This document shows positions 10,292 through 28,894 of a stretch of 64,000 nucleotides of DNA, piece by piece. The DNA is taken from the IMG/VR virus record IMGVR_UViG_3300025646_000015, positions 37,269 to 101,268 of that record; one strand, 5' to 3'. The DNA comes from a virus. A model generated the notes under the pieces. That model was not told the DNA's origin, did no database searches, and worked only from the letters and a program-made list of their open reading frames with translations. Each line of letters begins with the position of its first letter. Position 1 is the stretch's first letter. The position numbers were made by a program, and so were the translations under genes.

Positions 10292-10320
10292 AGTATATAT
10301 TATATGCATGCGATTATCAA
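10292..10320 (-). promoter_or_regulatory. sigma70-type promoter of the methyltransferase
   Basis: TTGATA-17 nt-TATACT. Confidence 0.65.
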
Positions 10321-13787: not shown

Positions 13788-13810
13788 TGGAGCAAGTGAG
13801 GGAATCGAAC
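13788..13810 (-). pseudogene. tRNA 3'-end remnant (Gly-like, T-loop to CCA)
   Basis: GTTCGATTCCCTCACTTGCTCCA; no pairing 5' T-stem or acceptor strand upstream; one nt short of canonical length. Confidence 0.5.
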
Positions 13811-13891
13811 TAGTAGATGATTTTGTTTTAAAAAAAATTTTAGTTAACTGGAGTATATATAATATATATTTTTCACACAACTTCTAATTTT

Positions 13892-13907
13892 TGGCAGAAT
13901 TAATGCA
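13892..13907 (+). promoter_or_regulatory. sigma54 (-24/-12)-type promoter upstream of hsp20
   Basis: TGGCAGAATTAATGCA with GG-N10-GC spacing. Confidence 0.6.
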
Positions 13908-13985
13908 ACAATAATATTGAAGTGCTCAAAACGAGGCTTTGATGTAGACAAAATGTCGCATGCAACTAAAAAAAATATAAATACA

Positions 13986-14462
13986 ATGACAAAATTACAC
14001 ATAAGAAGCAATCTTCCTAGTGGAAACTTAATTACTAGAGAAGAATTTTTAACACCGTTTGATTCTATTTTCGATAGCATCATACAAAAAACAATACCTT
14101 CTTTTTCCGAAGAGTTTGGGATTAGTTTTTTTGGAAATAACAGCTACCCAAAAGTAGATGTAATCGATCACGAAGATAAAATAACGATTGAAGCAGAAAT
14201 CCCAGGGCTATCAAAAGAAGATGTATCTGTTGACTTAGAAGATAATATCTTGTCTATTACTGGATCAAAAAGAAGCCAGCAAGAAGATAGGGAAAAAAAA
14301 TACATCAGAAGAGAGCTTAAAAGATCAAGTTTTAAAAGATCATTTCAGCTTGGAGAAAATTTTAAAACAAAAAATATTAAAGCTGACTTTAAAGATGGTA
14401 TATTATTAGTAATAGTACCCAAAAAAGAGCCAGAAAAGCCTAAAAAAATAAAGATATTATAA
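13986..14462 (+). CDS. hsp20: small heat shock protein Hsp20/alpha-crystallin
   Basis: YPKVDV...EAEIPGLSKEDV...LSITG...RRE...SFKRSF.L...A.FKDGIL...PK; start moved to ATG 13986. Confidence 0.95.
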   Translation: MTKLHIRSNLPSGNLITREEFLTPFDSIFDSIIQKTIPSFSEEFGISFFGNNSYPKVDVIDHEDKITIEAEIPGLSKEDVSVDLEDNILSITGSKRSQQEDREKKYIRRELKRSSFKRSFQLGENFKTKNIKADFKDGILLVIVPKKEPEKPKKIKIL

Positions 14463-15263
14463 TCAAGCCCCTTCGGGGGCTTTTTTGTGCAAAGATAGCT
14501 TGTTGTAAATTTTTGCAAATTGAATCCTGCGATCATAAGTTGTTAAAGTATGTTCATCACTTGAGTCATGACAGAATTTGTGAGACAAGTGAACCAGCTT
14601 GCTTTCAAAAACTAAAGAGGGTATATGTATATTATAAGGCTCTTTAGGCAAATTTGGTTCTCCTACATAAGTATTATTAAATTTATAAAATATTCTATCA
14701 TCCAGTCCTTTTTTAAAAATAGCCATAAGAAAATCTTGATCTGTAAAAAATTTCCTGAAGCCATGAACTGGATCTTTTATTAGAGAAACTCGGTGACAAT
14801 GTTTGATAATATCTTCTTTGTTTTCAAAAAGATAATCTATGTAGGAAAAGAAATTGACTGCATTTCCAGACATAAAGCAAGGGCAGGCTCTATGAAACCA
14901 TGTTAAAGATGATGGATTTGATGTAATGTCAGAAGGAGAAAGAGAAATATTAAAAATATCACAATCAGAAAAAAGAGAAAAATCCTTGCAAAAATATGCA
15001 AAAGCTAAATGCTCCAAGTGTGTTGCCATGTGATAGCTATGTTCTTCTACTTTTTGTCCAGAAGCATGAAAGTGGATGTATTTCACAAAATCACAGTACT
15101 TTTTATAAAGAGGCTTGTCTTGAATCATGGCTTTATTTAAGATAATTGGTTCAAACCCTAAATTGCTCCAATTTTTTTGCCAAAGCTTTAAAAAAGACGT
15201 AGCCTTTTCAATATAATTTATGTTTTTGAAGTTAGTGAATTGGTGATATGTATAAATTTTCAT
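14463..15263 (-). CDS. putative GT-A glycosyltransferase (paralog of 5142..5924)
   Basis: WQKNWSNLGFEPIIL, SDCD, TDQDFL, HLSH. Confidence 0.5.
   Translation of the reverse strand: MKIYTYHQFTNFKNINYIEKATSFLKLWQKNWSNLGFEPIILNKAMIQDKPLYKKYCDFVKYIHFHASGQKVEEHSYHMATHLEHLAFAYFCKDFSLFSDCDIFNISLSPSDITSNPSSLTWFHRACPCFMSGNAVNFFSYIDYLFENKEDIIKHCHRVSLIKDPVHGFRKFFTDQDFLMAIFKKGLDDRIFYKFNNTYVGEPNLPKEPYNIHIPSLVFESKLVHLSHKFCHDSSDEHTLTTYDRRIQFAKIYNKLSLHKKAPEGA
14465..14486 (+). terminator. intrinsic terminator after hsp20
   Basis: AAGCCCC-TTCG-GGGGCTT hairpin followed by a T run. Confidence 0.9.
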
Positions 15264-15267
15264 AAAA

Positions 15268-15678
15268 TGGTGGAGGTGGCGGGAGTTGAACCCGCGTCCT
15301 GATCGCCTGCAACGATCACATCTACAAGTTTAGTTGATTTTTTTTATAGTTAAGATATCAACATCCAACTAGCCATTTCAATTATTTACAGTTTATGATA
15401 TGGATAAATTTTTATCTGTTTTGGCAGATTAGTGACCCCGCAATCTTAATATCTGCGTCAAAAGTTGCGAGGGGGCAGCTTTCAAGCTACCATCTCAAGC
15501 TCTTCAGCTTGCTCGAATTGTACGAGATTGTCGTACTCTTCACGAGCAGCTTCAAGAAGCTCTTCTATGCTATAATAACCTTCGGCATGTATAGCTTGTG
15601 TGTCTTGATATCGGAGCCTGACACATCTCCGACTTGCAGTGAAAGAATTCGAACGTCAGTCAAATCCAGAACACCCCC
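15268..15678 (-). ncRNA. ssrA: tmRNA (one-piece, 411 nt, encoded CCA)
   Basis: 5' GGGGGUG pairs with CACCUCC-ACCA giving G3.U70; T-arm GCGGG-TTCAACT-CCCGC; GGATTTGAC 5' motif; PK1 stems TCGGAG/CTCCGA and TGTGTC/GACACA; tag frame. Confidence 0.95.
15482..15586 (-). other. tmRNA tag reading frame (A)AEGYYSIEELLEAAREEYDNLVQFEQAEELEMVA*
   Basis: resume codon GCC after ATACAT just downstream of PK1; 34 codons to TGA. Confidence 0.8.
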
Positions 15679-15705
15679 ATAAAATTTTAAAGAACTAAAT
15701 ATAGT

Positions 15706-15746
15706 TTACACTTTATTTATAGTAACAAAAGATAAAATAAAGTCAA
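15706..15746 (-). promoter_or_regulatory. tandem promoters of the tmRNA (sigma70-like plus phage GTGTAA motif)
   Basis: TTGACT at 15746-15741 with TACTAT 16 nt downstream; GTGTAA at 15711-15706. Confidence 0.6.
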
Positions 15747-15761
15747 GTTTCCCATAGTGTT

Positions 15762-16349
15762 TCATAATTTCTCAGCTATAGTGTTTAAACGGTCTTTCTT
15801 TTTTACAGAATAACCATACTGTTTTAATTTTTCTACACAAGGTTTATATACTTCACCTTTTAGCTCGTTGATTCTTGGATATCCGTCGGCATGTAAATGC
15901 TCAAACTCAATATACTTAATATCAAATTTATCTAAATTAAAGTTTAATAAAATTTCACAATCGGAACCTTCAGCGTCAATATAAAGTCTATCACATTCTG
16001 TTATATTATTAAGTTTAAAAAATTCATCTAAAGTAAAACATTCAACTTCTATTTCAAAAATGCTTTCATGGTTATGTGCTGTTAAATGTTGCCTATTAAT
16101 TGAAGAGTGCTGGATTTTTGATATATTAGTAGGAACAAACATCTTAATAACTTTTTTATTCGCTACAGGGGATATAGCTATATTAAAAATTTTAAAGTTT
16201 TTTATGTTTTTATATGCCTCTTTAATGTGTGGGTTACACATGGATAAAGGTTCTATAAGGTAAACCTTTTCAATTTCATCTTTGTGATTTATAACATATT
16301 TGTGACAATCATCTAAAGAATTATTAGTGCCTACTTGTACTATTTTCAT
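15762..16349 (-). CDS. FkbM family methyltransferase
   Basis: VQVGTN, LIEP, FTLD.FF, LYIDAEGSD, IEFE. Confidence 0.8.
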   Translation of the reverse strand: MKIVQVGTNNSLDDCHKYVINHKDEIEKVYLIEPLSMCNPHIKEAYKNIKNFKIFNIAISPVANKKVIKMFVPTNISKIQHSSINRQHLTAHNHESIFEIEVECFTLDEFFKLNNITECDRLYIDAEGSDCEILLNFNLDKFDIKYIEFEHLHADGYPRINELKGEVYKPCVEKLKQYGYSVKKKDRLNTIAEKL

Positions 16350-16494
16350 ATTAATAATTTATTAAAATTGTTGATTAAAAATTTACTTTTTGTAAATTCA
16401 AGTCTATCTTAGGATTACACCGAATTCCATTTTTTTAACTATATCTATAGTTTATTAAAATTTTTTTATACTATAGATTATTCAATTTTCTAAA

Positions 16495-17109
16495 TTATTC
16501 TCCAAATTCATAACCAAAATACTCAATGTCTCGTGCATACTTTTCTGCGACAATCTCGCGAGTTTCATCATCGTAGTATTCGGTGTAGTGTTTGTGGTTG
16601 GTTTTGTTAACATGTGGTAGGCTCTGAAAAGGAAGTCCAAGCGAAAAGCTTATTTCATCAAAGCTTTTTTGAAGAGATTCGTATTTAAATATTAAATCAC
16701 ATCCTTTCGCAAAATCTATTACATTCATTGAAATAGGAGGCCACACGCTAAGATGTTTTTTTACAAATTCCCTAAAAGAGACAGACCCTACATTGAACCT
16801 TGAAGTTGAGTTGAAACCATAGCTCCATGCCGAGACCAAACGTGAATAAGGATTGCGAGAAAAACAGAATTTAAAGTAGTTACCGAGGTTTTTATATGTT
16901 TCTGGGAAAAGCTTGCCTAGCTCATGCATTGGTATATGATGGGGACAATAATTAATATTTGTTTTTGAGTGAATAAAATTTAAAAATTCTCCTTGACTAA
17001 GTCCATGATATAAATCTTTTTCTGTCAAACCAAGTCCAACAATTAATGAAGAACTGCCAGTTTTCGGGTAACGCAAAAATATATATTTATGTTTTTCAGA
17101 GATGATCAT
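16495..17109 (-). CDS. sulfotransferase family 2 protein
   Basis: FLRYPKTGSSS, RNPYSRLVSAW, HYTEYYDDETREIVAEKYARDIEYFGYEF. Confidence 0.9.
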   Translation of the reverse strand: MIISEKHKYIFLRYPKTGSSSLIVGLGLTEKDLYHGLSQGEFLNFIHSKTNINYCPHHIPMHELGKLFPETYKNLGNYFKFCFSRNPYSRLVSAWSYGFNSTSRFNVGSVSFREFVKKHLSVWPPISMNVIDFAKGCDLIFKYESLQKSFDEISFSLGLPFQSLPHVNKTNHKHYTEYYDDETREIVAEKYARDIEYFGYEFGE

Positions 17110-17111
17110 GT

Positions 17112-17915
17112 TTAAAACCCAAGTAGTTTTTGAAATTTATTATAATCCACAAAATCTTCTAATGTATTGCTATTAGAATCGTTTTGTGCGATATTAATTA
17201 ATTGTCGTTTATTTGACATCCATTTCCTTCCTGTCCAAACTTGTACTCCTTTAATGTAAGATTTGTATTGAGAGGGTGTTTCGCTATACACTCCGATGTA
17301 TAAGTATTTGAAGTTAAAGCGTTTACAAAGCTCGACTTCTAAATGGTTGGATAAATTGCCGAGAGATAATTGTGGCTCAGAGTAGTCCCAAAAAAATAAA
17401 CCCGAAACTAAAGAGTGACCAACTTGAGTCATTGCGGTACAGGCAATTATTTCATCGTTTAGATAAAACAAAATGAAATGACTACTATCATCAACAACAT
17501 ATTTAAGAAAATTTTCTTTATCTAATATATCTTTGTAATTTTTGTGTGTTACATAGTTGTTATATATAGAATAAAGTTTATCTTTTATTTGATCTCTATC
17601 TGATTTTATATTTAAATCGCCAATAGTAATGTATTTGTAAGAAAAATTATTTAATTTTAATGCTTTTAAGTGCTTACTTTTTGCGCGGAACTTTTCGCAT
17701 TCGATTCTTGCGCTTCTTAATTGACACCAAATTTGTTTATTATTTGCTTCACTTTCGTTCACAAATTCGCAATCGTTGGTATAGAAATATGTGGGTAGCC
17801 AACCCGTAGCTAGGGCTTCATCCTCTTCGCCACTATCAACCCAAGCAGAAATAAGAGTATAATTAAAGTCTGTATCAGCTTGCTTAGAAATAACATGGTC
17901 ATAAAATATTTTCAT
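17112..17915 (-). CDS. ATE/Bpt-like aminoacyl-tRNA--protein transferase
   Basis: AL.TGW; C-terminal ATE_C pattern FWDYSEPQLSLG....LEVE.CK...FKYLYIG...YKS....Q.W...W. Confidence 0.7.
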   Translation of the reverse strand: MKIFYDHVISKQADTDFNYTLISAWVDSGEEDEALATGWLPTYFYTNDCEFVNESEANNKQIWCQLRSARIECEKFRAKSKHLKALKLNNFSYKYITIGDLNIKSDRDQIKDKLYSIYNNYVTHKNYKDILDKENFLKYVVDDSSHFILFYLNDEIIACTAMTQVGHSLVSGLFFWDYSEPQLSLGNLSNHLEVELCKRFNFKYLYIGVYSETPSQYKSYIKGVQVWTGRKWMSNKRQLINIAQNDSNSNTLEDFVDYNKFQKLLGF

Positions 17916-17931
17916 TCTACATTGATGTTTT

Positions 17932-18534
17932 TTATTTTTGGTTATTTAATAATGAACCAATTAAATCAAATGTTTTTTCATTCTTTGTAAGAACCCCAAG
18001 ACCATGAGAATGCTTAAAATTAAAATTATAAAATTCATCTTTGATCTCATCAAAAAATCTTCCTACATCCTTTGGAAATGAAATTGTGTCGTGAAATAAA
18101 ATTAAAGCATCTTCGTTACAATGATCAATCCAGTTTGTGAAATCTGATTTTACAGCATCGTATGTATGAAGTCCGTCAATGTGTAAAATATCTATTTTTT
18201 TATTCCAAGTTTTAGATAGTTCGGTGAAATCACTTTTTATAATTTCTACATTATCTATGTCATAGTGTGATTCCATGTCCGATTGTAAATTTTTAACAAT
18301 TTCATACGTGTTTCTATATTTTGCGTGTTCATCACCTTGAAACCAATCGACTCCATAAACTTTTCCAATTTTTGGTTGGGCAAAGCAAAAAGTGGAAAAT
18401 CCGTAGTCAACTCCAAGATCAACTACAATATCTGGTTTTAAAATTTCAACCAAATTCATTGCAAATTCTCCGTGACCCATCCATGCAGTTCCATGCACAC
18501 TTATTAATTTTTTAATGTATTTAACTCTGCTCAT
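17932..18534 (-). CDS. class I SAM methyltransferase (Methyltransf_24)
   Basis: VDLGVDYGFST, GVDWF.GD, IDILHIDGLHTYDAVKSD, LFHD, HGLGV. Confidence 0.9.
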   Translation of the reverse strand: MSRVKYIKKLISVHGTAWMGHGEFAMNLVEILKPDIVVDLGVDYGFSTFCFAQPKIGKVYGVDWFQGDEHAKYRNTYEIVKNLQSDMESHYDIDNVEIIKSDFTELSKTWNKKIDILHIDGLHTYDAVKSDFTNWIDHCNEDALILFHDTISFPKDVGRFFDEIKDEFYNFNFKHSHGLGVLTKNEKTFDLIGSLLNNQK

Positions 18535-18564
18535 TATATTTTATATTTTAAATTGTATTGTTTA

Positions 18565-19242
18565 TCAATTGGAGAACAACCAAAACTCAGCACTGTAGAA
18601 TGGGGACTGCTTTAATTTACAATCTGAATATTTATTTAATTGTACATACTTAATAGGACAGGGCAGACTTTTTAGATGATCGGAAGTTGACCACCAAAAA
18701 TTACCGCTGTAATGGTTGCCACGAAAATCTATACCAGTATGGTTTTTGTTATTCAAATCTTTTTGGCACTTTCTCCAATTTGTTATTAAAGTGTTAGACA
18801 TTGCTAATCTCCAATCCTCTCGGCTGTTGTAATACATATGAGCGCCAGAATGCACAGAGCCTTTTCCGTGAAGATATAATATATTCGCAGGATTTTTTAA
18901 CGCATTAATTTGATCATGCATGAATTTAAGAGTGTCAGCCTCAAGCCCTGTTTTACCAATTAGAAGTCTGTGATTATTTTCAATCTCAATGGGAGTGAAT
19001 GAACTTATATACTCCCGCAATTCTTGATTAAGATATTGATGCAAATTTATTTTAGACAATTTACTTGCAAATGTTTGTTGAATATTATGCCTATGCTCTT
19101 GCATATTTGCCCCAATAATATTAATGTGTAATTTGTTTATATTTTCATACAAATCTGACTTTATAATTTCATCTAATGTTCTAGAAAGTATATCGAAAGA
19201 TTTATCTGTACAAAAGTAATGATAGTAAATTATTTTATTCAT
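18565..19242 (-). CDS. conserved phage protein, putative glycosyltransferase-related
   Basis: E..TL, ILYLHGKG, WR..M, HYSGNFWW, AEFW motifs. Confidence 0.5.
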   Translation of the reverse strand: MNKIIYYHYFCTDKSFDILSRTLDEIIKSDLYENINKLHINIIGANMQEHRHNIQQTFASKLSKINLHQYLNQELREYISSFTPIEIENNHRLLIGKTGLEADTLKFMHDQINALKNPANILYLHGKGSVHSGAHMYYNSREDWRLAMSNTLITNWRKCQKDLNNKNHTGIDFRGNHYSGNFWWSTSDHLKSLPCPIKYVQLNKYSDCKLKQSPFYSAEFWLFSN

Positions 19243-19778
19243 TCTACATTATATATTTCTGTATTGGGTTTAGGTATAAATTTTACACTATCATTTACTA
19301 TATGATCATCCCATATGATCTTATTTGTTGGTTGCGCGGCAAAATTGCCCTCGTTTAATTTGATAAAATGAAATGGTTTGTAAAACTTTGGGTCTTCTGC
19401 TCGATCTGAGCCATAAGGTTCTAAGGTAAACATATATTGACCATGATGAAATTCTTTATTTTCATCAAAAAACTTACAATTCATATATTTGAGATAGTCG
19501 TATTCAATAACACTGTTAGAATAGCTAAATGAATCATAAGTCATTAAGAATGATAAATCTCTTTGTGGAGCTTCCTTGAGCCAGCAAAAGGCATGTAAGG
19601 GTAACTTTGTATATACCGCGCCATTTTCAATCATAGCTACAAATGTCATAGCTTGATTTTTGATTGTATGGACGCCGAAAATTACACAATTTAAATGATC
19701 GGGTATATCTTCAGAATTAGAAACAAATTCTCTCCTCAAAAAGCATTTGATTGCTGGAGTGTTATTGCATAACTTCAC
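19239..19778 (-). CDS. conserved phage hypothetical protein
   Basis: GAVY.KLPLHAF, Y.FT, GNFAAQPTNKIIW motifs recalled from aquatic phages. Confidence 0.6.
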   Translation of the reverse strand: MKLCNNTPAIKCFLRREFVSNSEDIPDHLNCVIFGVHTIKNQAMTFVAMIENGAVYTKLPLHAFCWLKEAPQRDLSFLMTYDSFSYSNSVIEYDYLKYMNCKFFDENKEFHHGQYMFTLEPYGSDRAEDPKFYKPFHFIKLNEGNFAAQPTNKIIWDDHIVNDSVKFIPKPNTEIYNVE

Positions 19779-20476
19779 ACATCTTTAGGTTTTTTTTTCT
19801 TTTGCGCTTTTTTATATGCTTCTGGATCTGGGCGATCTTTATCTCCAGGTTTTGCTGGACGATAGTTTTTACCTTCCCTTTTTTTCTTTTCTCTAATGTT
19901 ATGCCAAAGGCCTTTGCCTTCAGCCTCTGATTTCTCTTTAGGTTCTTCTTCTTTTTTGGAATCTTTATCTTCTGCTTTCTTGGGATCTTTGCCCTGTTTT
20001 TTTAAAATTTTCTTTTGCATTTCTGGGGGAAGTTTTTTTTGCTGCTCAGTTAATTCGGCATCAGATTCATCTAAATAATTTAAGAGATCTTCATAAGTTT
20101 CTTCGGAACCCTTTGTGACTTTAGTAACACTTTTCTTGCTCCACATTTTACATGACCAATAGCGGGCTTTTGTTTTTGGTCCTGGATTTTCACAATTATG
20201 TCTCGCGCGAAAAGATTTCCTGCGCTCAGGACTGTCTCTTTTGATTTCCATATTGGGGTCTCCAAAATTAACTTTAACGACATTACCCTTTTCGTTTTTC
20301 ACATAGACCGAAAACTTCTTTGGTCCGCCTGGTGTACGAAAAGGTTTGTTTAAAGTCTTGCCCTTTGTTTTTTCTTCGGCCCAAGCTTCTTCGCCAATTT
20401 CTTCTTCGTTCCCAACTTCGGCAGCAAACGCTTTCTTGATTTCTGAGGAAAAATCTATTTCATGTTTGTAATTCAT
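19775..20476 (-). CDS. conserved basic phage protein (RRKSFRARH.C...ARYWSC domain)
   Basis: LNKPFRTPGGPKKFSVYV...FGDPNM...RRKSFRARHNC...YWSC; GLW.NI..K motif; start moved to ATG 20476. Confidence 0.7.
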   Translation of the reverse strand: MNYKHEIDFSSEIKKAFAAEVGNEEEIGEEAWAEEKTKGKTLNKPFRTPGGPKKFSVYVKNEKGNVVKVNFGDPNMEIKRDSPERRKSFRARHNCENPGPKTKARYWSCKMWSKKSVTKVTKGSEETYEDLLNYLDESDAELTEQQKKLPPEMQKKILKKQGKDPKKAEDKDSKKEEEPKEKSEAEGKGLWHNIREKKKREGKNYRPAKPGDKDRPDPEAYKKAQKKKKPKDV

Positions 20477-20492
20477 GTGTAATATATATTGG

Positions 20493-20798
20493 ATGGTAAT
20501 AATTGATTCAAGATTAACTGCTCCACCTAGTGAAGTGTGTCTCTTTAGAGAAATTACACTATTCACGCGAGCTTTTCTGCAAGAAAATATAGTTTTAGAA
20601 TGCAGAAGGGAAGAAAGAGATTTTTACTATAAATGGTTGAAAAATAAAGCGGCATGGGATTATGTTGAGGATTTTATACAACCAAAATCTGAAAACGGGA
20701 GAATTTCTATAAGAACTAAAGATGGAGATATAACCATAGATAGAATTAACTATCAAAATATAAATTTTATATTGCAAAGATTAGGCATATGGACATAG
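20493..20798 (+). CDS. hypothetical protein
   Basis: GTGTAA (20477-20482) 10 nt upstream of ATG 20493. Confidence 0.6.
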   Translation: MVIIDSRLTAPPSEVCLFREITLFTRAFLQENIVLECRREERDFYYKWLKNKAAWDYVEDFIQPKSENGRISIRTKDGDITIDRINYQNINFILQRLGIWT

Positions 20799-20989
20799 GC
20801 AAAGAAAGATTATTGCATTTTATAGTTTTTTTATGTTTCATGCTTATTTATATATGTTATGAAAAAAATAAAGAAAACGAAAAATTAAAAGACATGGTAT
20901 ACGAAGCAGAAAAAACCATTGGCATACAAAACCAAGTTATTATTAATCAGAAACATTACATAGAGGCAATTAATAAATTTATAAATTAA
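20789..20989 (+). CDS. small membrane-anchored coiled-coil protein
   Basis: N-terminal TM LLHFIVFLCFMLIYICY followed by a coiled coil. Confidence 0.5.
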   Translation: MDIGKERLLHFIVFLCFMLIYICYEKNKENEKLKDMVYEAEKTIGIQNQVIINQKHYIEAINKFIN

Positions 20990-21522
20990 CGATATTCTTT
21001 TTTTAAGAGTCTCCACCTGTCGGAGTCAATTGGTTTATCTCCTGAATCTATAGAATTAATCATGTTAATAACCTCTTCTATTGAGTTATATATATATTTA
21101 TGAGGAATCATGCCAAACATCCATAATGGGGTTTTTACTTTACCGCCTTCGATGCTAATAAAAATTGGTTTTTTCATCCTTACAGCAGTCACAATTTCTT
21201 CTGCACTACCCCAACTTGCGACTTCTGGAACTAAATGAGCAATAATAAAATCACTTCTATCTACTAAATTTAGATCATAAGATCTTATAGTCTTTAGTTT
21301 TTCTGAAAGTACATCATATTTTTTATTTTTTAATAAAAAGTCCATTTCTGTTCGAGAGTTTTCACTCTCATCAACGTCTTTCACAAAAGGTTTATCGTAT
21401 GGATTAAAGCATAAAATATTAAGTTTGCTCAACTCTTTAGTAACTTCTTTTCTCCAATTTCTTCCATTAAGATACTGCATATGTCCAACCAAATAAACTT
21501 TGGTTTTCTGCAATAAATTCAT
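20986..21522 (-). CDS. nucleoside 2-deoxyribosyltransferase-like / nucleotide N-glycosidase
   Basis: KVYLVG, NPY, DL..VDRSD.IIA, SWGSAEE. Confidence 0.75.
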   Translation of the reverse strand: MNLLQKTKVYLVGHMQYLNGRNWRKEVTKELSKLNILCFNPYDKPFVKDVDESENSRTEMDFLLKNKKYDVLSEKLKTIRSYDLNLVDRSDFIIAHLVPEVASWGSAEEIVTAVRMKKPIFISIEGGKVKTPLWMFGMIPHKYIYNSIEEVINMINSIDSGDKPIDSDRWRLLKKEYR

Positions 21523-21525
21523 ACT

Positions 21526-22275
21526 TTAATTTTTTAAAAGTTTGATTATCTCCCTAGCTATTTTAGGGGGTATATCTTCATAAGAAGACCAAGAAGATGG
21601 ATCAAATTCTTTAAGATCAATGATATAGATACCGTCTTTATGCCATTGCCTTAATTGATCTAGGAAATTTTCAAAACTTGAAAGACCGAATGCCTCCGCA
21701 CTGGATTTCACGAAACCTTGAGGCGTTAGTGATGAAGATGGATTTGATAATGAAGGATTAGATAAACCTGACTTATCAATTTCATCGTCTCCGACAATAT
21801 GGATATTAAGAAAATTTCTAACACATCTCACAAAAGCTCGATTACAAGCAATTGTCTCTAAAAACTTAGTGGCAAAACTGCTGGTATTATTTAATGTAGC
21901 ATTTGCCGCGTCTTGGAATAAAACAGATTCAAAACTTGTTTCATAATTAGGAAGAAACTCTATAGAGCATAAAACTGAAACATGAAAGTCTTCGCACTTA
22001 ATAAAGTCATATTTTACACTTTTAAAACCTCGAAGCTTTGCCAATTCTTTTATGCCTCCTAATTTAATTAACAACTGATGGTCTTCTAATCCATCAATAG
22101 ATTTAGGCATAGGTTTCTTTCTTAGTTCAAACCAACTCTTGTTTGGGAATAAGAATTCATCTTTAACCATCGCTCTCCAATTGACAGAGCCATCTTCAGA
22201 AAAATTATAATTATAATCTTTTATTAGCCCCCTGTCGTCACGCTGGAAATTTAATTTTAATTGATTTTCTTGCAT
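21526..22275 (-). CDS. putative ssDNA-annealing protein (Rad52/Sak-like fold)
   Basis: GGIKELA, A.NRAFVRCVRNFLNI..VG.DEI pattern; replication context. Confidence 0.4.
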   Translation of the reverse strand: MQENQLKLNFQRDDRGLIKDYNYNFSEDGSVNWRAMVKDEFLFPNKSWFELRKKPMPKSIDGLEDHQLLIKLGGIKELAKLRGFKSVKYDFIKCEDFHVSVLCSIEFLPNYETSFESVLFQDAANATLNNTSSFATKFLETIACNRAFVRCVRNFLNIHIVGDDEIDKSGLSNPSLSNPSSSLTPQGFVKSSAEAFGLSSFENFLDQLRQWHKDGIYIIDLKEFDPSSWSSYEDIPPKIAREIIKLLKN

Positions 22276-22280
22276 AATAT

Positions 22281-23381
22281 TTAAGATGTTTTATAAAAAA
22301 AGAAAAAATCTTGATCTTCCCACAAGTCAGAAGCATCAATGATTGATTCTAGTTCACCTGAGGATTGTTGACCAATGACCCAGTGAGCCTTACTGCAAAA
22401 CTCTCCGTTTTTGGAAAACAAACGTTTAGATGAAAACATCTTAGTATTATCGCAAAATTCAATAGAATTGTCAATATCTTTTTTTGTTTTTTTAGGGTAG
22501 TGAAAAATAGTTTCGTCAATGTATTTTAGCCTAACATCTTTTAATATATCTTCATTATCAACATACAATTCATATGGAACATTATAGTATTTTAATGTTT
22601 CAACAAATGTAAAATCTTGATCTAAAGAGTTTTTCATGTTGACACAGAATCGTAAATTTCCATGCCTTGCTAAATTAATAAATTCATTAGAAAAAGGTTT
22701 GTCCGTAATAATACTCGCGACCCTTTGATTGCAAAAATTTAAAATTTTATTCTCATCAAAAGATAAATCAGCTCGTATATTTAAACTAGATCTAGGGAAA
22801 AAATTTGGAGCAGGATCAAAATCAGGTATAACTTCGATTACATCTTGATTAGATAAGTTTCCTCTATAAATGTTATTTAGCTTGTTTAACTCGTGATCAA
22901 TCCCTAGGATGTTTAAAATTTTAGAAGCAATATTTGAAGTACTGATATTAATGTAGTTATTGTTGCATTCTAGGTAATCACCTTTGTATTTGGGCCAACA
23001 AAACTGACCAAAGTCTTTGGGGAAAAGACAAAAGCTTGGAACATTAAAACTATTTGATACATAAGTAAAATGATCGTACTCGGAAATGTGACATAAAGAT
23101 TTAGATATTAAATAAGAGTTTTGATTGAAAGAAAGATTTTTTTTATCTACAACGTTATATAAAGAATCTTTACAGTTTCCTATTAATAGAACCTTAATGT
23201 CTTGTTTCTCAAGATAGGGTAGGATTAATCTAATAACTTCATTCCAGTACTTGTAAAATTTTTCATTATCAAAAGAAATGCTTACATAATTTTCATGCAA
23301 ATTTGGATAAAAACAAGGGTTTACAGAAATTTCGTCGAACTTCAATGCAGAATACAGAGAGAATTTTTCCAATTTGTTCAT
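22281..23381 (-). CDS. GT9-like (heptosyltransferase C-domain) protein
   Basis: YKYWNEVI..I...L, LSFNQ.SYLI..S..HI..D, VP.F.LF. Confidence 0.5.
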   Translation of the reverse strand: MNKLEKFSLYSALKFDEISVNPCFYPNLHENYVSISFDNEKFYKYWNEVIRLILPYLEKQDIKVLLIGNCKDSLYNVVDKKNLSFNQNSYLISKSLCHISEYDHFTYVSNSFNVPSFCLFPKDFGQFCWPKYKGDYLECNNNYINISTSNIASKILNILGIDHELNKLNNIYRGNLSNQDVIEVIPDFDPAPNFFPRSSLNIRADLSFDENKILNFCNQRVASIITDKPFSNEFINLARHGNLRFCVNMKNSLDQDFTFVETLKYYNVPYELYVDNEDILKDVRLKYIDETIFHYPKKTKKDIDNSIEFCDNTKMFSSKRLFSKNGEFCSKAHWVIGQQSSGELESIIDASDLWEDQDFFFFYKTS

Positions 23382-25267
23382 TGAGAAGATAGATTAATTA
23401 ATTTGTTTTCAATACTGGAAGATGGGGCTTGAACCAAATCAAAATTATAATAATAATCAAAATACTGAAGCATAGTTTTCTCTGAAGAAAATTCTTTTTG
23501 GTATGGAATCATTTGATATATACAAGGATGTCCAGACAGGATCGAGTGATGAGTCAATTTTGTAGAAAAATAAACATCAACATTATGAAACTTATTCTTA
23601 AAATCTTTGATTAAGGATGAAACTAATAGCAAATCTTCTATAGAATTAGTAGAAACAAACAAAGCTTTCTTATTTTCGTTTTTTGGAAAAATATCTTCTA
23701 TGCCAATTTGAGCATCTTTTTTTTCAATTTTTGCATTCTCGGAATGAGCTACTGATTTAAAATAATTCAATATATTAGATCTAGACATTCCATTTCTGAT
23801 TTGATTCATCCAGTGCTTGTGTCCATCATCATAATGATCAAGATCAATTTTTAATATATTTTTATATATATCAATCAGCCAAGAAGAATCATCCTGACTG
23901 TTATTGGGTGAATATTCTGGGTCGCGTTTCTCCAGGTCAAAAGAAAAGTCTTCAATATAATCCATGGAATCAAATATTTCTTCAAGTTTTTTGCCGATAA
24001 CTGGAATAGAATAGTTGTCAATAACATATTGTCTTGATTTTTCCCCCATCATTTTGCGTTGATTAAAATCCATCTTAAAGACTTTTTTTAAATTTTTAAA
24101 AATACTTTGAGGGGATGTACTGGCTTTAATAAATTGAGTGCCAGGTTCTCTGTACTCAGACCAATCAAGTGGTAGTCCCCCGCTGTCTTTATTGCAAGAA
24201 TCTATTCCGCAAGAGTAATTAGTAACTAAAGTTATAAGTTCTGTAAGCTTAGCTTCTTGTATAGGTATTTCCTGTCCGCCACTAGTGAATGGATGGCAAT
24301 AAACATCCATTAAATTATATATCTCATTCAACTGCTTTTCATTAACACCATGACTTATGTTTACGGTGTTTTGAGATTTAGAAGATCCGCATATAGGGCA
24401 ATCTTTCTCTTGTCCAGTGAAAGGCTTAATTTCATAATTAGAACAATTAGGGCAATAATAAGTGCAGAGAATATCTCTTGGATCAATTTGTTTTTCTTTA
24501 ATTAAAGAAACAATATCCCAACCTTCAGAAAAATTAGTGTGCAACAAAAGCTTGGCTTTGCTTTGGGGATAATTTTTTTTAAAAATCCTAAAACCTTCTA
24601 GCAAATTAGGAACACTTTTTCTCAATTGATTTCTAAAAACAAATCCTATAACAAAAGAATCTTCATCAATTTGAAAACGCTCTCTAAGCGATGATCTCTT
24701 AACAGAATCAAGCTTAAAAAAGTTAGTGTCATCAACCCCGCCATGAAGAGTCTTTACATGATTGATTCCATAATCTTCTTTAAAAGATTGTTCGGCAAAG
24801 CTTGACCAAACATAATAATTCTTAATTTTACTCGCAGATTTTACAGCATCAGGCAAAAGAGGAAGGCTATCAAGAGTAGTCCATACCATGGAATTTATTT
24901 TATTCCACCAATCTTTTTGAATAAAAGGGGAAAGTCCCCATATATCTTCAACACCTAAATATATATCAGGCTTTTCTGTTTTTATTACTTGATCAATCTG
25001 GAAATGTCCATATTGAGCAGACCTAGAAAGATTAGGGTCAGAAGTTAATCTGTCTAACTCTTCTTGAGAGCTTGGCAATCCACCAATAGCTTTCCATGGT
25101 AAAGTTTGTAAAGCTTGGTGTCCATTGGCAACCCCATTGCTTAATTCAATTATTTCATACTTGCCAGTTGAGGCCAGATATCTTAGTATATTTTTGGCAT
25201 TCTTGCCGAAACCAGTAAGGACTCTTGAGTAATTACTGTGAAAGATTATTTTTTTCTTTCTTTTCAC
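23378..25267 (-). CDS. multidomain GT-B (GT4-like) glycosyltransferase with Zn ribbon, DUF4214-like helix bundle and GT9-like tail
   Basis: TGFG, RNQLRK, CPNC...CPIC, IYNLMDVY.HPFTSGGQEIPIQEA; IY..IL...DG..HW.....G.SR. Confidence 0.75.
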   Translation of the reverse strand: MKRKKKIIFHSNYSRVLTGFGKNAKNILRYLASTGKYEIIELSNGVANGHQALQTLPWKAIGGLPSSQEELDRLTSDPNLSRSAQYGHFQIDQVIKTEKPDIYLGVEDIWGLSPFIQKDWWNKINSMVWTTLDSLPLLPDAVKSASKIKNYYVWSSFAEQSFKEDYGINHVKTLHGGVDDTNFFKLDSVKRSSLRERFQIDEDSFVIGFVFRNQLRKSVPNLLEGFRIFKKNYPQSKAKLLLHTNFSEGWDIVSLIKEKQIDPRDILCTYYCPNCSNYEIKPFTGQEKDCPICGSSKSQNTVNISHGVNEKQLNEIYNLMDVYCHPFTSGGQEIPIQEAKLTELITLVTNYSCGIDSCNKDSGGLPLDWSEYREPGTQFIKASTSPQSIFKNLKKVFKMDFNQRKMMGEKSRQYVIDNYSIPVIGKKLEEIFDSMDYIEDFSFDLEKRDPEYSPNNSQDDSSWLIDIYKNILKIDLDHYDDGHKHWMNQIRNGMSRSNILNYFKSVAHSENAKIEKKDAQIGIEDIFPKNENKKALFVSTNSIEDLLLVSSLIKDFKNKFHNVDVYFSTKLTHHSILSGHPCIYQMIPYQKEFSSEKTMLQYFDYYYNFDLVQAPSSSIENKLINLSSQ

Positions 25268-25276
25268 TACGCAAAA

Positions 25277-25846
25277 TTAAAAAGGATCTTCTTCTGTAAT
25301 TTCTGCCTTAGGGGAATTGTCTGATTGATAATTTCGACTTGAATTAATTTGATAATCGATATAGGAATCAATGTATTTAATCAATAGTCTTTTTAGTACT
25401 TCAAGTTCTCCAGGTTCAAGCGCTATTTTTATGTTTACTGACTTATTTTTAGATAAAGAAAAGCCAAAACAGGGAACAATAACATCTGATTCCTCAAAAG
25501 ACTTACTAGAAGAATTGTAACTAGAAACTTTAGAGTTCTTGTCCCAAGGAGTCAACTTGATTGTCGTTGTATTCTCTCCATATGAATGAAAAGAAGAAAA
25601 CTGAGTTCTATTATTTAGAGCATTAAGGAACTCTCCTGCTTCATTATGATTAATTTTAGTATTAATCGTTTTTTCTGGGTTTTTAGCGTTACCAGAAAAA
25701 GATCCAGTTTTCTTTGAATCGTTCCACCCATGCTGAGCTATAGAGCTGATATAAAATGAAGGGGCATTATTTTTTTCTTCAGACAAAGAAAATGTAAATG
25801 CAGATCCAGAATTCTTGCTGTTAGGTTTGTAAAATTGAATAGACAT
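25277..25846 (-). CDS. putative single-stranded DNA-binding protein
   Basis: beta-rich body with an acidic C-terminal EEDPF tail like SSB DDIPF; replication context. Confidence 0.5.
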   Translation of the reverse strand: MSIQFYKPNSKNSGSAFTFSLSEEKNNAPSFYISSIAQHGWNDSKKTGSFSGNAKNPEKTINTKINHNEAGEFLNALNNRTQFSSFHSYGENTTTIKLTPWDKNSKVSSYNSSSKSFEESDVIVPCFGFSLSKNKSVNIKIALEPGELEVLKRLLIKYIDSYIDYQINSSRNYQSDNSPKAEITEEDPF

Positions 25847-25848
25847 AA

Positions 25849-26442
25849 TTATGAATTGGCTAGTTTTTCTTCGACTTTAAGCAAGATATCTAAAACTTCA
25901 TGCTCGTAACGAGTGTGTGTCCTCATTTTTTCAGCATCATCTGAAATATTGGACATTTCTTGAACAAATCTAGCATAAATTTCTTCATATCCATTAAAGA
26001 AGCAAACTTCTCCAGAGAAAAATTTTCTAACTTCTTCATTAGCTTCTTTGGGGGCTACTCCAGCAGTCGGCCTAAGTTTGTGGGTAACAATATAAGATGT
26101 CGCATCTTCTTGTTCTTTAAATGTATTTTCATTTAGAAGACGTTCTTCTTTTGATGGCATTAATGTGATACTGATAACTTGATTGTCTCGTTCGCAAACC
26201 AAGAATTTATAACCTTTAGTGACTTCCAACTTCTTTTTTGTTAAAAAAGATTTTAATTCTTTAACATCGCTACAATAATTCCATTCCCTTTCTTCATAAT
26301 TTTCTCCACAAGGATGGAATTCAACTAACCTGTCCCCAAGATGGGTAACTACAAAATTAGAATTCTGAGGCGAGTCTAGATCATTTACATGAATATCTGC
26401 TTCAGCTGCGTTTTCTTTGTCGATTTTATTTTTATTTTTCAT
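25849..26442 (-). CDS. hypothetical protein (translationally coupled to clpC)
   Basis: 197-aa ORF overlapping the clpC stop. Confidence 0.6.
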   Translation of the reverse strand: MKNKNKIDKENAAEADIHVNDLDSPQNSNFVVTHLGDRLVEFHPCGENYEEREWNYCSDVKELKSFLTKKKLEVTKGYKFLVCERDNQVISITLMPSKEERLLNENTFKEQEDATSYIVTHKLRPTAGVAPKEANEEVRKFFSGEVCFFNGYEEIYARFVQEMSNISDDAEKMRTHTRYEHEVLDILLKVEEKLANS

Positions 26443-28894
26443 TTTTTTTGATTTGATCTAATGTTATTTTGATATTGGAAGAAGAATCTTTTATAATCAT
26501 TTTAGATATTATTTTTTCAATATTTTTTTGAATAATATTTTGAATTGGTCTAGCCCCCAAGTTTGCATCAAAAGCTTTTTGAGAAAGAAAGTCAATACAT
26601 TCCGAATCCAAGGTAACTTCAATTTTATACATTTTTTTGATTTTTCTAATCAACTTTGATATATTTTTCTTTGTGAGAAATTTAATTTGCTCTAAAGAAA
26701 ATGTATTGAATAGCAATATATCATCGATTCTATTAATCAACTCGGGTTTAAGTGTTAATTCAACTTCCTTCATGACGCTGTCTGATACAGAATGTTCTTG
26801 TTTCATGAAACCTACTGCTTGTTTTTGATGATAATGTTTAGCTCCGATATTGCCTGTCATTATAACAATGCAATTTTTAAAATTAGCATTTTTCCCAGAC
26901 TCATCTGTAAGCCTTCCTTCTTCTAGAATTTGTAAGAGAATATTCAAGACATCAGGATGAGCTTTTTCAATTTCGTCAAATAGTAAAACCGAATGAGGTT
27001 TGCTTTTGATTTTATCAGTTAAAGATCCTGATTCATTATATCCTATGTAGCCTGGCGCCGAACCTATTAATCTAGATATGTTAATCTTTTCTGAGTATTC
27101 TGACATGTCTAAATGAATTAAATGATTAGATCCACCAAAGTAAGTTTCTGCCAAATGTTTTGCTAAGAAAGTTTTACCTACTCCTGTAGGGCCCAAAAAA
27201 AGAAAAGATCCTAGCGGTTTATTGGAATTTGTTATTCCAAGTTTAGACCTTAGAATACATGAAGAAACAACTTCGCACGCATGATCTTGAAATAAAACTC
27301 CTTTTGATAAATCATTTTCGAGATTTAATAAGAAGCCCTGTTCGTCTTTGTTGATTTTTCCTATTGGAATCTTACAAGAACTAGAAACAACTTCAGCTAT
27401 TTCTTTTTTTGTTATAAAATTAATTTTAGATTTAATTCTATTTTTCCAATTTTTAAATTTCCTTTCGTGGATTTTTATTAATTTATTCTGTTGATTTCTG
27501 AACTCTTTTTTTAGTGCAGGATGTTGATCTTCCTGCGACATAAGAAACTCTAATTTTTCTTCAATTTCCAAAATTTCTTTTGGTTTAGATGAATTTCTTA
27601 TTTTGGCCCTAGCTCCAGCTTGATCAATTATGTCAACCGCTTTATCTGGCAACTGTCTGTCATTTATATACTGAACAGATAAGTCGATAGCAAATTGAAT
27701 AGCGTTTTTTCTATATTTAACATTGTGAAATTTTTCATAATAACCAATGCTTTGATTGATAATTTCGAAGCTTTGGTTTGCAGTAGGCTCATCAATTAAA
27801 ACTTTTTCAAAACGACGTTCTAGTGCAGAATCTTTTTCAAAAGATTTTTTATACTCACTGGGGGTTGTGGCCCCAATGCATCTAATCTTATTTCTAGCTA
27901 ATGCTGGCTTCAAAATATTTGCAGCATCTAAAGATCCTTCTGAAGCCCCCGCTCCAATTATGGTATGAATTTCATCAATAAATAAAATTATATTAGGATC
28001 TTTTTCGACATAATTAATTAAAGACTTCAATCTTTCTTCAAATTGACCCCTAAATTTAGTTCCTGCAATTAATGCAGTAAGGTCTACTTCTAGGATTTTT
28101 TTTGAACTAAGAAACTCTGTGCATTGATTGGCGGCAATAAGCTGAGCCAATCCTTCTATAATTGTTGTTTTTCCTGTGCCAGGAAGGCCTATTAATATAG
28201 GATTATTTTTGTTTCTTCTACATAATATTTCAGAAATTTGAGAAATTTCAAAATCCTTTCCTATCACTTTGTCGAACAAGGAATCTCTTGCCATTTTTAT
28301 ATAATCCTTCGTGAATGAAGTTATAGAATTTTGAGATAAAGGCGGTCGAGGATCATCAATGGATTCTTGGTCAGCTTGATTTTCATTAATTTGTCTATAG
28401 GGTCTTACTTTAGGAAGAGTCATCTCATTTGTATTTGAGAAATTTAACAGTGCCGCCTCCAGAAAACCTTTTATATTTAGATTAAAATCTTTTAAAAAAT
28501 TTGAAATGATCGTATCTTTCGTATTTAAGAAAATAAAAAAAAGATGCTCGACACCTATGTAATCATGAGAGAATTTCTCAGAAAGATCTTTGGCTTTTCT
28601 AAAAATTTCCAGATAATCTTCGCAAAAAGATAATTTTAATTGAGGAGTTTTTTGATTAAAATAAATCTTATCCTGAAGTTTTAAAGAATTAATCTCTCCA
28701 CTCATGTATGATTTAAAATCTTCTATAGGGACATTTATATATGTAAAAAAATTCTCTATAAAAAAATGAGAGGATTCTACAAAGCCTATTAATAAGGAGT
28801 CTAAACAAATGGAATTGAACCCAAGCTGTTGAGAAACTTTCTTCGAGAAAGAAATTAAGTGCTGCGCCCTTGGCGTTAAATTAAATTTATTCAT
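26432..28894 (-). CDS. clpC: ClpC/ClpA-type AAA+ unfoldase
   Basis: Clp_N repeats, Walker A GLPGTGKT and GPTGVGKT, Walker B LFIDEIH and LLFDEIEKAH, short M-domain, VGF ClpP-docking loop. Confidence 0.9.
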   Translation of the reverse strand: MNKFNLTPRAQHLISFSKKVSQQLGFNSICLDSLLIGFVESSHFFIENFFTYINVPIEDFKSYMSGEINSLKLQDKIYFNQKTPQLKLSFCEDYLEIFRKAKDLSEKFSHDYIGVEHLFFIFLNTKDTIISNFLKDFNLNIKGFLEAALLNFSNTNEMTLPKVRPYRQINENQADQESIDDPRPPLSQNSITSFTKDYIKMARDSLFDKVIGKDFEISQISEILCRRNKNNPILIGLPGTGKTTIIEGLAQLIAANQCTEFLSSKKILEVDLTALIAGTKFRGQFEERLKSLINYVEKDPNIILFIDEIHTIIGAGASEGSLDAANILKPALARNKIRCIGATTPSEYKKSFEKDSALERRFEKVLIDEPTANQSFEIINQSIGYYEKFHNVKYRKNAIQFAIDLSVQYINDRQLPDKAVDIIDQAGARAKIRNSSKPKEILEIEEKLEFLMSQEDQHPALKKEFRNQQNKLIKIHERKFKNWKNRIKSKINFITKKEIAEVVSSSCKIPIGKINKDEQGFLLNLENDLSKGVLFQDHACEVVSSCILRSKLGITNSNKPLGSFLFLGPTGVGKTFLAKHLAETYFGGSNHLIHLDMSEYSEKINISRLIGSAPGYIGYNESGSLTDKIKSKPHSVLLFDEIEKAHPDVLNILLQILEEGRLTDESGKNANFKNCIVIMTGNIGAKHYHQKQAVGFMKQEHSVSDSVMKEVELTLKPELINRIDDILLFNTFSLEQIKFLTKKNISKLIRKIKKMYKIEVTLDSECIDFLSQKAFDANLGARPIQNIIQKNIEKIISKMIIKDSSSNIKITLDQIKKNEK

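Follow-up and report, generated by a model that had tools for sequence, protein, structure and literature searches.

Probable separate host-proteostasis genes in a large tailed phage: ClpC, tmRNA, Hsp20 and an ATE-like transferase

In bacterial trans-translation, the transfer-messenger RNA (tmRNA) SsrA acts together with SmpB and the ClpXP and ClpAP proteases. tmRNAs are also present in 2.3% of 18,146 phage genomes, where ribosome rescue and selective tagging have both been proposed as their roles (PMC9004378), and besides phage tmRNAs, phage small heat-shock proteins (sHSPs) and a PHROG family of phage Clp-type ATPases are already known. The present analysis concerns four genes, for a tmRNA, a ClpC-type unfoldase, an sHSP of the Hsp20 family and an ATE/Bpt-like protein, which lie within 15 kb of a stretch of 64,000 nucleotides (referred to here as the window), positions 37,269 to 101,268 of the IMG/VR phage contig IMGVR_UViG_3300025646_000015 (101,268 bp, with a completeness estimate of 74%; labelled G000). 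The initial annotation had taken these genes for a single phage-encoded system that tags and degrades proteins. We consider it probable, though well short of certain, that the phage carries several separate host-proteostasis genes and not one operon-like system.

The tmRNA of G000 shares with the bacterial system its full one-piece form, the alanine identity pair and a tag frame, and with the tmRNAs of OM43 phage Melnitz and pelagiphage Mosig (PMC9004378) that it is phage-encoded without SmpB; relatives of G000 also carry tags with ALAA at the end. It departs from known tmRNAs in a tag of 34 residues that is strongly acidic and ends in MVA, and it occurs in a clade with a ClpC of its own; the tmRNAs of Melnitz-type phages, unlike that of G000, come in two pieces and are linked to a riboswitch. 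The ClpC has the same domain order over its full length as the ClpC of Bacillota (B. subtilis, S. aureus, with MecA and ClpP; 3j3s, 6em8, 9gi1), with about 38% identity, and like those proteins it has kept both ATPase rings intact, together with the pore loops and the ClpP loop. Unlike them, it is phage-encoded, translationally coupled to the DNA polymerase III alpha subunit (Pol III alpha) and divergent in its N domain, in which one weak match to a Clp_N repeat is found; no MecA, McsB or ClpS was found for it, and it falls below the NCBIfam equivalog cut-offs.

The ATE-like protein resembles the Bpt/ATE1 transferases (ATE_N plus ATE_C; 7wg1, 7tif, 8tzv) in the GNAT-type core of ATE_C, the Lys at the catalytic position and a Bpt-like length; ATE1 is its best structural match, and an acidic residue stands at the donor-pocket position of Glu277. 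Unlike them, it has no C4 zinc finger or ATE_N, hydrophobic residues or Pro stand in place of the RR motif with R80, the virus-only family has a fixed beta-barrel partner, and the score is 42 bits against a 252-bit equivalog cut-off. In the literature, no relevant description of a phage ClpC or a phage ATE was found, nor any paper on a phage clade that couples a complete ClpC, with its ClpP-docking loop retained, to the gene for the replicative polymerase, or on a branch of the ATE/Bpt aminoacyl-tRNA transferases that is specific to viruses. Of most interest are the ClpC coupled to Pol III, the charge-reversed tmRNA tag and the ATE-like family, which is virus-only and has a constrained partner.

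Arrangement of the four genes in the phage and its relatives

All four genes are present where they had been placed, as found with Rfam, ARAGORN and Pfam, and ATE_C, Clp_N, AAA_2 and the tmRNA family all gave matches. They are listed below with the hairpin that follows the first of them.

13917..14462, plus strand: small heat-shock protein (Hsp20/alpha-crystallin; PF00011, E 2e-25, 89.1 bits, residues 82-180; phrog_432)
14465..14482, no strand assigned: terminator-like G+C-rich hairpin with a T run (terminator scan: 7 pairs, 5 of them G-C)
15268..15678, minus strand: one-piece tmRNA, full length (Rfam RF00023 and ARAGORN)
17112..17915, minus strand: ATE/Bpt-like protein, 267 aa (PF04377, ATE_C, 46.2 bits against a cut-off of 25)
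26432..28894, minus strand: ClpC-type class I Hsp100 unfoldase, 820 aa (N domain, D1, short M domain, D2)

These genes belong to at least four transcription units. Hsp20, the open reading frame of which is called from a TTG at 13917 with in-frame ATGs at 13953 and 13986, is the sole plus-strand gene of the stretch and converges with a gene of 266 aa; the hairpin lies between the two and is common to both. The tmRNA is free-standing, with a spacer of 83 nt before the gene. The ATE-like gene has a Methyltransf_24 gene close by on one side (16-nt gap) and a sulfotransferase gene on the other (2-nt gap) and lies 1,433 nt from the tmRNA, and ClpC lies 10.8 kb from the tmRNA.

Searching IMG/VR with the ATE-like protein gave three close relatives, including G002 (139 kb, 98% complete), and a protein-by-protein comparison identified G000 and G002 as mosaic relatives. 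All four genes are found in G002 as well:

40.1 kb: Hsp20
85.9-88.3 kb: ClpC
89.7 kb: tmRNA
126.1 kb: ATE-like gene

There they are dispersed over 86 kb, the ATE-like gene and Hsp20 being 36-50 kb away from ClpC and the tmRNA. The clustering within 15 kb is therefore lineage-specific. By a rough estimate of our own that assumes random placement, four genes would fall within 15 kb of a genome of ~140 kb with a chance of 4 x (15/140)^3, about 0.005; phage genomes are modular.

Gene content was counted in 23 records of the phage clade defined by the Pol III-ClpC pair, 2 of them near-complete:

tmRNA: 11 of 23 records; 2 of 2 near-complete
ATE_C: 7 of 23 records; 2 of 2 near-complete
Hsp20: 9 of 23 records; 1 of 2 near-complete
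ClpP-family peptidase: 2 of 23 records; 0 of 2 near-complete
SmpB: 0 of 23 records; 0 of 2 near-complete

Two of these relatives, G013 (79% complete) and G010, have ClpC and a tmRNA and neither the ATE-like gene nor Hsp20, and G019 (90% complete) is also without Hsp20. The tmRNA lies at most 6 kb downstream of ClpC in 6 of the 11 records that have it (128 nt in G010, 1.4 kb in G002 and G018) and 10-32 kb away in the rest. Only the Pol III-ClpC pair is fixed in the relatives, ClpC and the tmRNA are often near each other, and linkage or co-inheritance of all four genes was not found. From their positions, ClpC and the tmRNA look like an old, often-broken neighbourhood, with the ATE-like gene and Hsp20 outside it. 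A nucleoside 2-deoxyribosyltransferase-like (NDT) gene usually stands just after the tmRNA in the relatives, in the order ClpC, tmRNA, NDT.

The single system first proposed has to be weighed against this arrangement. In that scheme the ATE-like protein would write N-degrons and the tmRNA C-degrons, Hsp20 would hold the substrates, and ClpC with host ClpP would degrade both. Part of it stands, since the ClpC is intact and carries a ClpP-docking tripeptide that appears to be selected, and the phage has a tmRNA of its own that recurs in relatives. All four genes are real, within 15 kb of each other and also present together in the 98%-complete relative, and elsewhere the ATE-like gene and its partner, a cassette described below, are found beside Hsp20, a Clp-like ATPase or, at locus L003, a tmRNA. 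What did not survive is the notion of one unit: the genes are transcribed separately, scattered in G002 and variable independently of each other among relatives, such as those that keep ClpC and the tmRNA without the other two; ARAGORN detects no tmRNA within 6 kb at any of 80 other ATE loci (0/80), and no ClpS-type N-degron reader was found in G000. We regard a single system as improbable. In the reading of separate genes, ClpC and the tmRNA would be an older, partly linked pair of the clade, Hsp20 would act on its own as a holdase, from a convergently transcribed gene, as in many marine phages, and the ATE cassette probably came near the tmRNA in the lineage of G000 only.

The polymerase-coupled ClpC and the tmRNA

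The features on which this section draws are the following.

28891..31464, minus strand: DNA polymerase III alpha subunit (PF07733, PF17657, PF14579)
26807..26815, minus strand: VGF tripeptide, residues 694-696 of ClpC, predicted ClpP-docking loop (aligns to the AGF/VGF loop of ClpC)
15482..15586, minus strand: tmRNA tag reading frame including the stop (34 aa, acidic, ending in ...EELEMVA)

A Clp ATPase with two AAA modules and a VGF loop had been noted from the outset, and both the Pfam domains (Clp_N, AAA, AAA_lid_9, AAA_2 and ClpB_D2-small) and the alignment to solved ClpC structures agree with it: residues 6 to 815 align with the ClpC of S. aureus and B. subtilis (6em8, 3j3s; E 1e-174). 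In the N domain, a single Clp_N repeat passes Pfam with a weak score (27.1 bits), and the alignment to 6em8 starts at residue 6. The motifs include a Walker GLPGTGKT with ILFIDEIH and a GPTGVGKT with LLFDEIEKAH, as well as the pore loops KFRGQFEER and GSAPGYIG, and both Walker A/B pairs and both pore loops are intact across an alignment of 27 ClpCs of the clade. The tripeptide [IVLM]GF is retained in 26 of these 27 proteins, the flanks of the loop being variable, and at the level of sequence this constancy is good evidence that docking to ClpP is under selection.

The stop of Pol III alpha overlaps the start of ClpC by 4 nt (ATGA), and ClpC would be co-translated with this replicative polymerase. 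A search of IMG/VR with two ClpCs gave more than 541 viral loci, and in the best 80 of them, for which gene order was checked, Pol III alpha is directly upstream of ClpC in about 28. The Pol III-ClpC pair marks out a clade of phages that comprises about 30 IMG/VR contigs, with genomes of ~140 kb and 31-33% G+C. The ClpC matches in the GenBank phage collection were set aside, as they are mostly unannotated short records and probably host DNA. Just after ClpC in G000 there is a gene of 197 aa with no match in Pfam, NCBIfam, PHROGs or the ESM Atlas, and a gene of 444 aa that lies between ClpC and the tmRNA in G002 has no PHROG.

Profile searches of the whole 101 kb record (74% complete) found no ClpP or ClpS, in agreement with what had been reported for the window. 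Among the clade records a ClpP-family peptidase gene occurs in G007 (L100:9775-10479) and G014 (L099:7564-8259) and is absent from the other 21 of 23; the phage ClpC would need host ClpP, as had been expected. The two peptidases are of ~232 aa with an N-terminal extension of 60 aa, retain the Ser, His and Asp positions, and are encoded among metabolic genes, outside the structural module and head genes. The [IVLM]GF loop of ClpC most likely docks host ClpP, which would give a phage-directed protease.

Clp ATPases are also known for roles in replication and transposition: ClpX takes part in disassembly of the Mu transpososome, ClpA acts with P1 RepA and ClpXP with lambda O. The phage ClpC could likewise be mainly a replication-linked remodelling chaperone, which assembles, recycles or clears polymerase or replisome complexes, while the tmRNA would only free ribosomes. 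The overlap with Pol III alpha and the gene order in about 28 loci are consistent with such a role, and so is a sister lineage (L107-L115, L120, L122; for example, L108:3006-4490) in which Pol III alpha is followed by a Clp-like ATPase of ~460-500 aa that consists of the N domain and D1 only, and hence is without D2 and the ClpP loop. On the other side, the near-constant [IVLM]GF of the full-length clade ClpCs, set within a variable loop, argues for ClpP docking, as do the two relatives with a ClpP-family peptidase in which the Ser, His and Asp positions are retained. We find a mainly remodelling role rather unlikely and prefer ClpP docking. After the D1-only ATPase of the sister lineage come a gene of 69 aa, a gene for an APH-like kinase and an ATE-like gene.

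The tmRNA matches RF00023 along the whole model (positions 1-374 of 374) with 124.3 bits, where the gathering score is 47, and ARAGORN concurs. In its acceptor stem, 5' GGGGGUG pairs with CACCUCC-ACCA, which includes a G3:U70 pair and leaves a 3' CCA end. Between the tmRNAs of G000 and G002 the G3:U70 pair is preserved, and pair 4 shows a compensatory change from G-C to C-G. The gene looks functional. When the G000 tmRNA (15268-15678) is compared with that of G002 (L012:9675-10038), the 3' two-thirds are near-identical and the 5' third and the tag strongly different, an uneven similarity that suggests recombination or very uneven constraint inside the gene.

ARAGORN calls the tag as AREEYDNLVQFEQAEELEMVA, which is only its last 21 aa (15482-15547); upstream of this call the frame stays open. 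In relatives, the resume codon is found at nt 89-94 of the gene. The consensus resume codon falls at the same place in the Rfam alignment of the L003 copy, a tmRNA near-identical to that of G000, and because of this agreement the G000 tag is read as 34 residues, AEGYYSIEELLEAAREEY...EELEMVA. It is strongly acidic, with one basic residue in total, and the acidic tag ending in ...EMVA is carried by G000 and L003. The tags of the relatives are long and basic: that of G002 is GNKSRVKAFAFKKRELALAA, and others end in ...KLALAA (LALAA), ...VAVAA or ...AVA. The canonical hydrophobic, Ala-rich end of the xLAA type is not found in G000, which does not support the idea that this tmRNA is an ordinary writer of C-degrons. 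The charge-reversed tag lends itself to a simple test of whether tagged proteins can be re-routed by a phage.

No SmpB (PF01668) was found by profile search in G000 or in any of the 23 related records, and therefore host SmpB would be needed by the phage tmRNA. The tmRNA is probably under its own promoter, and it would be charged by host alanyl-tRNA synthetase and delivered by host SmpB, to rescue ribosomes stalled in infection and tag their products. The acidic, MVA-ending tag may use a receptor other than the usual ClpX/SspB route, or it may escape degradation.

As tmRNA genes are common integration sites and tmRNA fragments occur in prophages (PMC9004378), the gene could also be a passive pick-up from a host or from a prophage attachment site, with no role in infection. 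Such an origin is very improbable: the tmRNA is full length, lies inside the phage genome rather than at its end and is found in 11 of 23 relatives, its G3:U70 pair has been retained through a compensatory change in the stem, and its tag frame is open and diversified.

The ATE-like protein and its beta-barrel partner

Besides the ATE-like gene itself, three genes are considered here.

16495..17109, minus strand: sulfotransferase (PF03567, E 1e-14), 2 nt from the ATE-like gene
17932..18534, minus strand: Methyltransf_24 methyltransferase (PF13578, E 2e-19), directly upstream of the ATE-like gene
19239..19778, minus strand: partner of the ATE-like gene, 179 aa, phrog_3704 (E 3e-35), no Pfam family

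The initial annotation described an ATE/Bpt-like transferase 1.4 kb from the tmRNA. The distance and the ATE_C domain were confirmed, and the Bpt identity was not. The NCBIfam models of bacterial arginyl/leucyl-transferases (Bpt) reach 41.7 bits against a cut-off of 252 and cover residues 68-238 only. In Foldseek, the AlphaFold (AF2) model of the protein (pLDDT 73.6) matches human ATE1 best (E 2e-9, TM 0.59), followed by yeast ATE1, MprF, L/F-transferase and FemX, all of them transferases that depend on aminoacyl-tRNA. Among 1.84 billion representatives, a profile search found 688 relatives, and in the top ~100 of them the CxxC and GFRR motifs of ATE_N are absent; the G000 protein has no ATE_N match either. 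In an hhalign alignment to a canonical-type relative (98.3% probability), GW-L-P of the family falls on GF-R-R, and W, Q or R on the zinc-finger cysteines.

These are the parts on which the classical enzymes depend. Defining features of Ate1 from K. lactis are its C4 zinc finger and R80; R80 reads the acidic N-terminal residue (Asp or Glu), and the substitution R80E abolishes activity (PMC9351520). An Arg at the R80-equivalent position (GxRRSG motif) is found in just 2 of 51 members of the ATE-like family. Because the protein lacks both the C4 zinc finger and an arginine to read acidic N-termini, it is not a classical Bpt/ATE1 and should not be filed as Bpt, and the role of N-degron writer given to it in the single system is not supported. 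The catalytic-position Lys, K218 of a YK motif that is equivalent to K305 of FemX, is invariant (51/51) and lines up with the YK found in the canonical-type relative. E193, present in 45 of the 51, matches Glu277 of the arginine (donor) pocket of Ate1, where Bpt has Gln (PMC9351520 and alignment). We infer from these residues an active aminoacyl-tRNA transferase with an acceptor site unlike that of Bpt/ATE1, and the conserved Glu in the donor pocket is a hint that the donor may be a basic amino acid, for example Arg or Lys.

The family is a virus-specific branch and almost only viral. Pattern scans found it in at least 522 IMG/VR contigs against 6 loci, all of them contigs of metagenome-assembled genomes, in 185,579 species genomes, and two ATE-like proteins searched by tblastn had no match among 50,697 GenBank phage records. 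Members of the cluster were recovered from Tara, ENA and JGI metagenomes, and their contigs do not exceed 131 kb. The branch occurs on hundreds of aquatic phage contigs and in none of the cultured phages.

The most conserved link of the ATE-like gene is neither to the tmRNA nor to ClpC; it is to the gene at 19239-19778, which encodes an unrelated protein with predicted beta-barrels, and this does not support a single system. Its family, phrog_3704, adjoins the ATE-like gene in 75 of 83 loci and is directly upstream on the same strand in 60. It is also the family of the cyanophage and pelagiphage gene labelled 'PurM' or 'ferredoxin' (T4-like gene cluster 171 in Syn19); in GenBank records of cyanophages, pelagiphages and Flavobacterium phages (112 records) it is labelled PurM, ferredoxin or hypothetical. 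Pfam finds no PurM or ferredoxin domain in it, and these labels are mislabels. Isolates carry phrog_3704 alone, without the ATE-like gene, as between nrdA and nrdB in pelagiphage Mosig, whereas in G000 and many uncultured phages the two are coupled.

The model of the partner predicts two small SH3/Tudor-like beta-barrels. No PDB sequence match, no Foldseek match at E <= 0.001 and no named family in the ESM Atlas were found for it, and VIA-align returned only Tudor/SH3-like barrels with Z 5-6, within the common-fold range. Mean identity is 72% for the partner against 48% for the ATE-like protein. Between G000 and G002 the partner gene differs by 34 synonymous and 2 non-synonymous changes, which places it, as judged from these substitutions, under strong purifying selection; the same figures rule out recent transfer as the cause of the 99% identity of the two partners. 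Since the partner is fixed and constrained and the features for N-degron writing are lost, the ATE-like branch is a clean target in the search for a new acceptor of tRNA-dependent aminoacylation.

The acceptor may be of another kind. The enzyme could aminoacylate a glycan, a lipid or a small amine, in the manner of FemX or MprF, as part of a pathway for a sulfated or methylated glycan or, in relatives, of a polyamine type. The gene does sit between a methyltransferase and a sulfotransferase gene, and the sulfotransferase abuts it in G002 too (126116-126910, then 126911-127504); the window holds RmlD-like, GT1, GT2, FkbM and three sulfotransferase genes, and MprF and FemX are among the fold matches. 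The Pol III-ClpC clade has, moreover, another ATE-like type, which is more divergent (about 30% identity) and without the phrog_3704 partner; in 4 of 4 records (G003, G019, G020, G021) it comes after an AdoMet_dc-family gene. Yet the best matches in fold and sequence are ATE1 and Bpt, which modify proteins; the recognised neighbours in the 80 other loci are genes for replication, nucleotide metabolism, packaging and Hsp20; sulfotransferase neighbours were seen in G000 and G002 only, though many neighbour clusters are unannotated; and the constant neighbour is the beta-barrel protein, not an enzyme of sugar metabolism. A glycan or amine acceptor is in our view unlikely, if worth keeping in mind.

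The protein-modifying alternative that we prefer sees the ATE-like protein, by the fold of its model, as an aminoacyl-tRNA-dependent transferase with its catalytic Lys retained, the gene of which would move as a cassette with the strongly constrained beta-barrel protein. The partner, or a protein presented by the partner, would be the first guess for the acceptor. It is conceivable, but doubtful, that the two form a protein-tagging device which adds a basic amino acid from tRNA to chosen proteins of the host or the phage and, together with the tmRNA and ClpC/host ClpP, lets the phage choose which proteins are destroyed or spared while it infects.

Several observations weigh against the reading of separate genes. 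Most of the relatives are fragments (11-79% complete), so the counts of presence and absence are weak. Hsp20 directly follows the ATE cassette in 16-17 loci of one or two other phage lineages, in another lineage the cassette stands two to three genes after the Pol III-linked, D1-only Clp-like ATPase (10 loci), and in L003 only 45 nt separate the end of the ATE-like gene from the tmRNA. These repeated meetings between the ATE cassette and proteostasis genes hint at a functional tie that is perhaps underweighted here; they correspond to some three events across about a dozen distinct contexts, which is suggestive, not decisive. The invariant R67 and R70 of the ATE-like protein could rebuild a positive acceptor pocket, and recognition of acidic N-termini is thus possible. 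Finally, the D1-only ATPase of the sister lineage implies that the conserved role of the gene position occupied by ClpC may not be proteolysis. Inheritance of the adjacency to Hsp20 from a cyanophage gene order was considered and rejected, as the partner is not beside hsp20 in Syn19 or DSL-LC02.

The divergent AdoMet_dc-family gene, of 116-136 aa, is directly upstream of the ATE-like gene at L095:9351-9701, L096:8894-9268 and L097:9029-9439 (G019, G003 and G021), and in the same three records a conserved gene of 150 aa lies downstream of the divergent ATE-like gene. A second, canonical AdoMet_dc is also present in G020 and G021. Just upstream of the pair in G003 there is a cluster of tRNA-Thr(TGT), tRNA-Arg(TCT) and tRNA-Leu(TAA) at L096:9289-9533, to which the weak 'tmRNA' match beside the ATE-like gene of this record actually corresponds. 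In Flavobacterium phage immuto (L187:4687-5645), the 'PurM'-labelled partner gene is preceded by a small gene annotated as TiaS, tRNA(Ile2) agmatinyltransferase, and in another lineage a neighbour of the ATE-like gene, of 138 aa, has a very weak TiaS_TCKD match (E 0.049). The gene of 252 aa that follows the partner in immuto was not shown to be ATE-like (hhalign probability 5%).

Genome setting of the window

The window is part of a large lytic-type tailed phage of ~140 kb with 31.5% G+C. Its phage identity is based on the IMG/VR record, PHROGs for virion and tail-fibre proteins, rIIA/rIIB, a sigma factor and glycan enzymes. The rII genes, a hallmark of large lytic phages, are in the record outside the window:

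G000:C1:13745-17313: rIIA-like (770 aa) and rIIB-like (386 aa) genes

Positions 1-25300 of the window form a large glycan-type island, in which a sigma factor and a C5 DNA methylase are interspersed. It includes an FkbM methyltransferase and three Sulfotransfer_2 genes (5930-6469, 16495-17109 and a G002-type copy). The genes of this region that have not been listed above are:

3582-4466: RmlD-like reductase
5930-6469: Sulfotransfer_2 gene
8225-8779: sigma factor
9229-10275: C5 DNA methylase
10317-11333 and 12879-13880: GT2 genes
15762..16349, minus strand: FkbM-type methyltransferase (PF05050, E 5e-14)
20986-21522: NDT-like gene
23378-25267: GT1 with DUF4214

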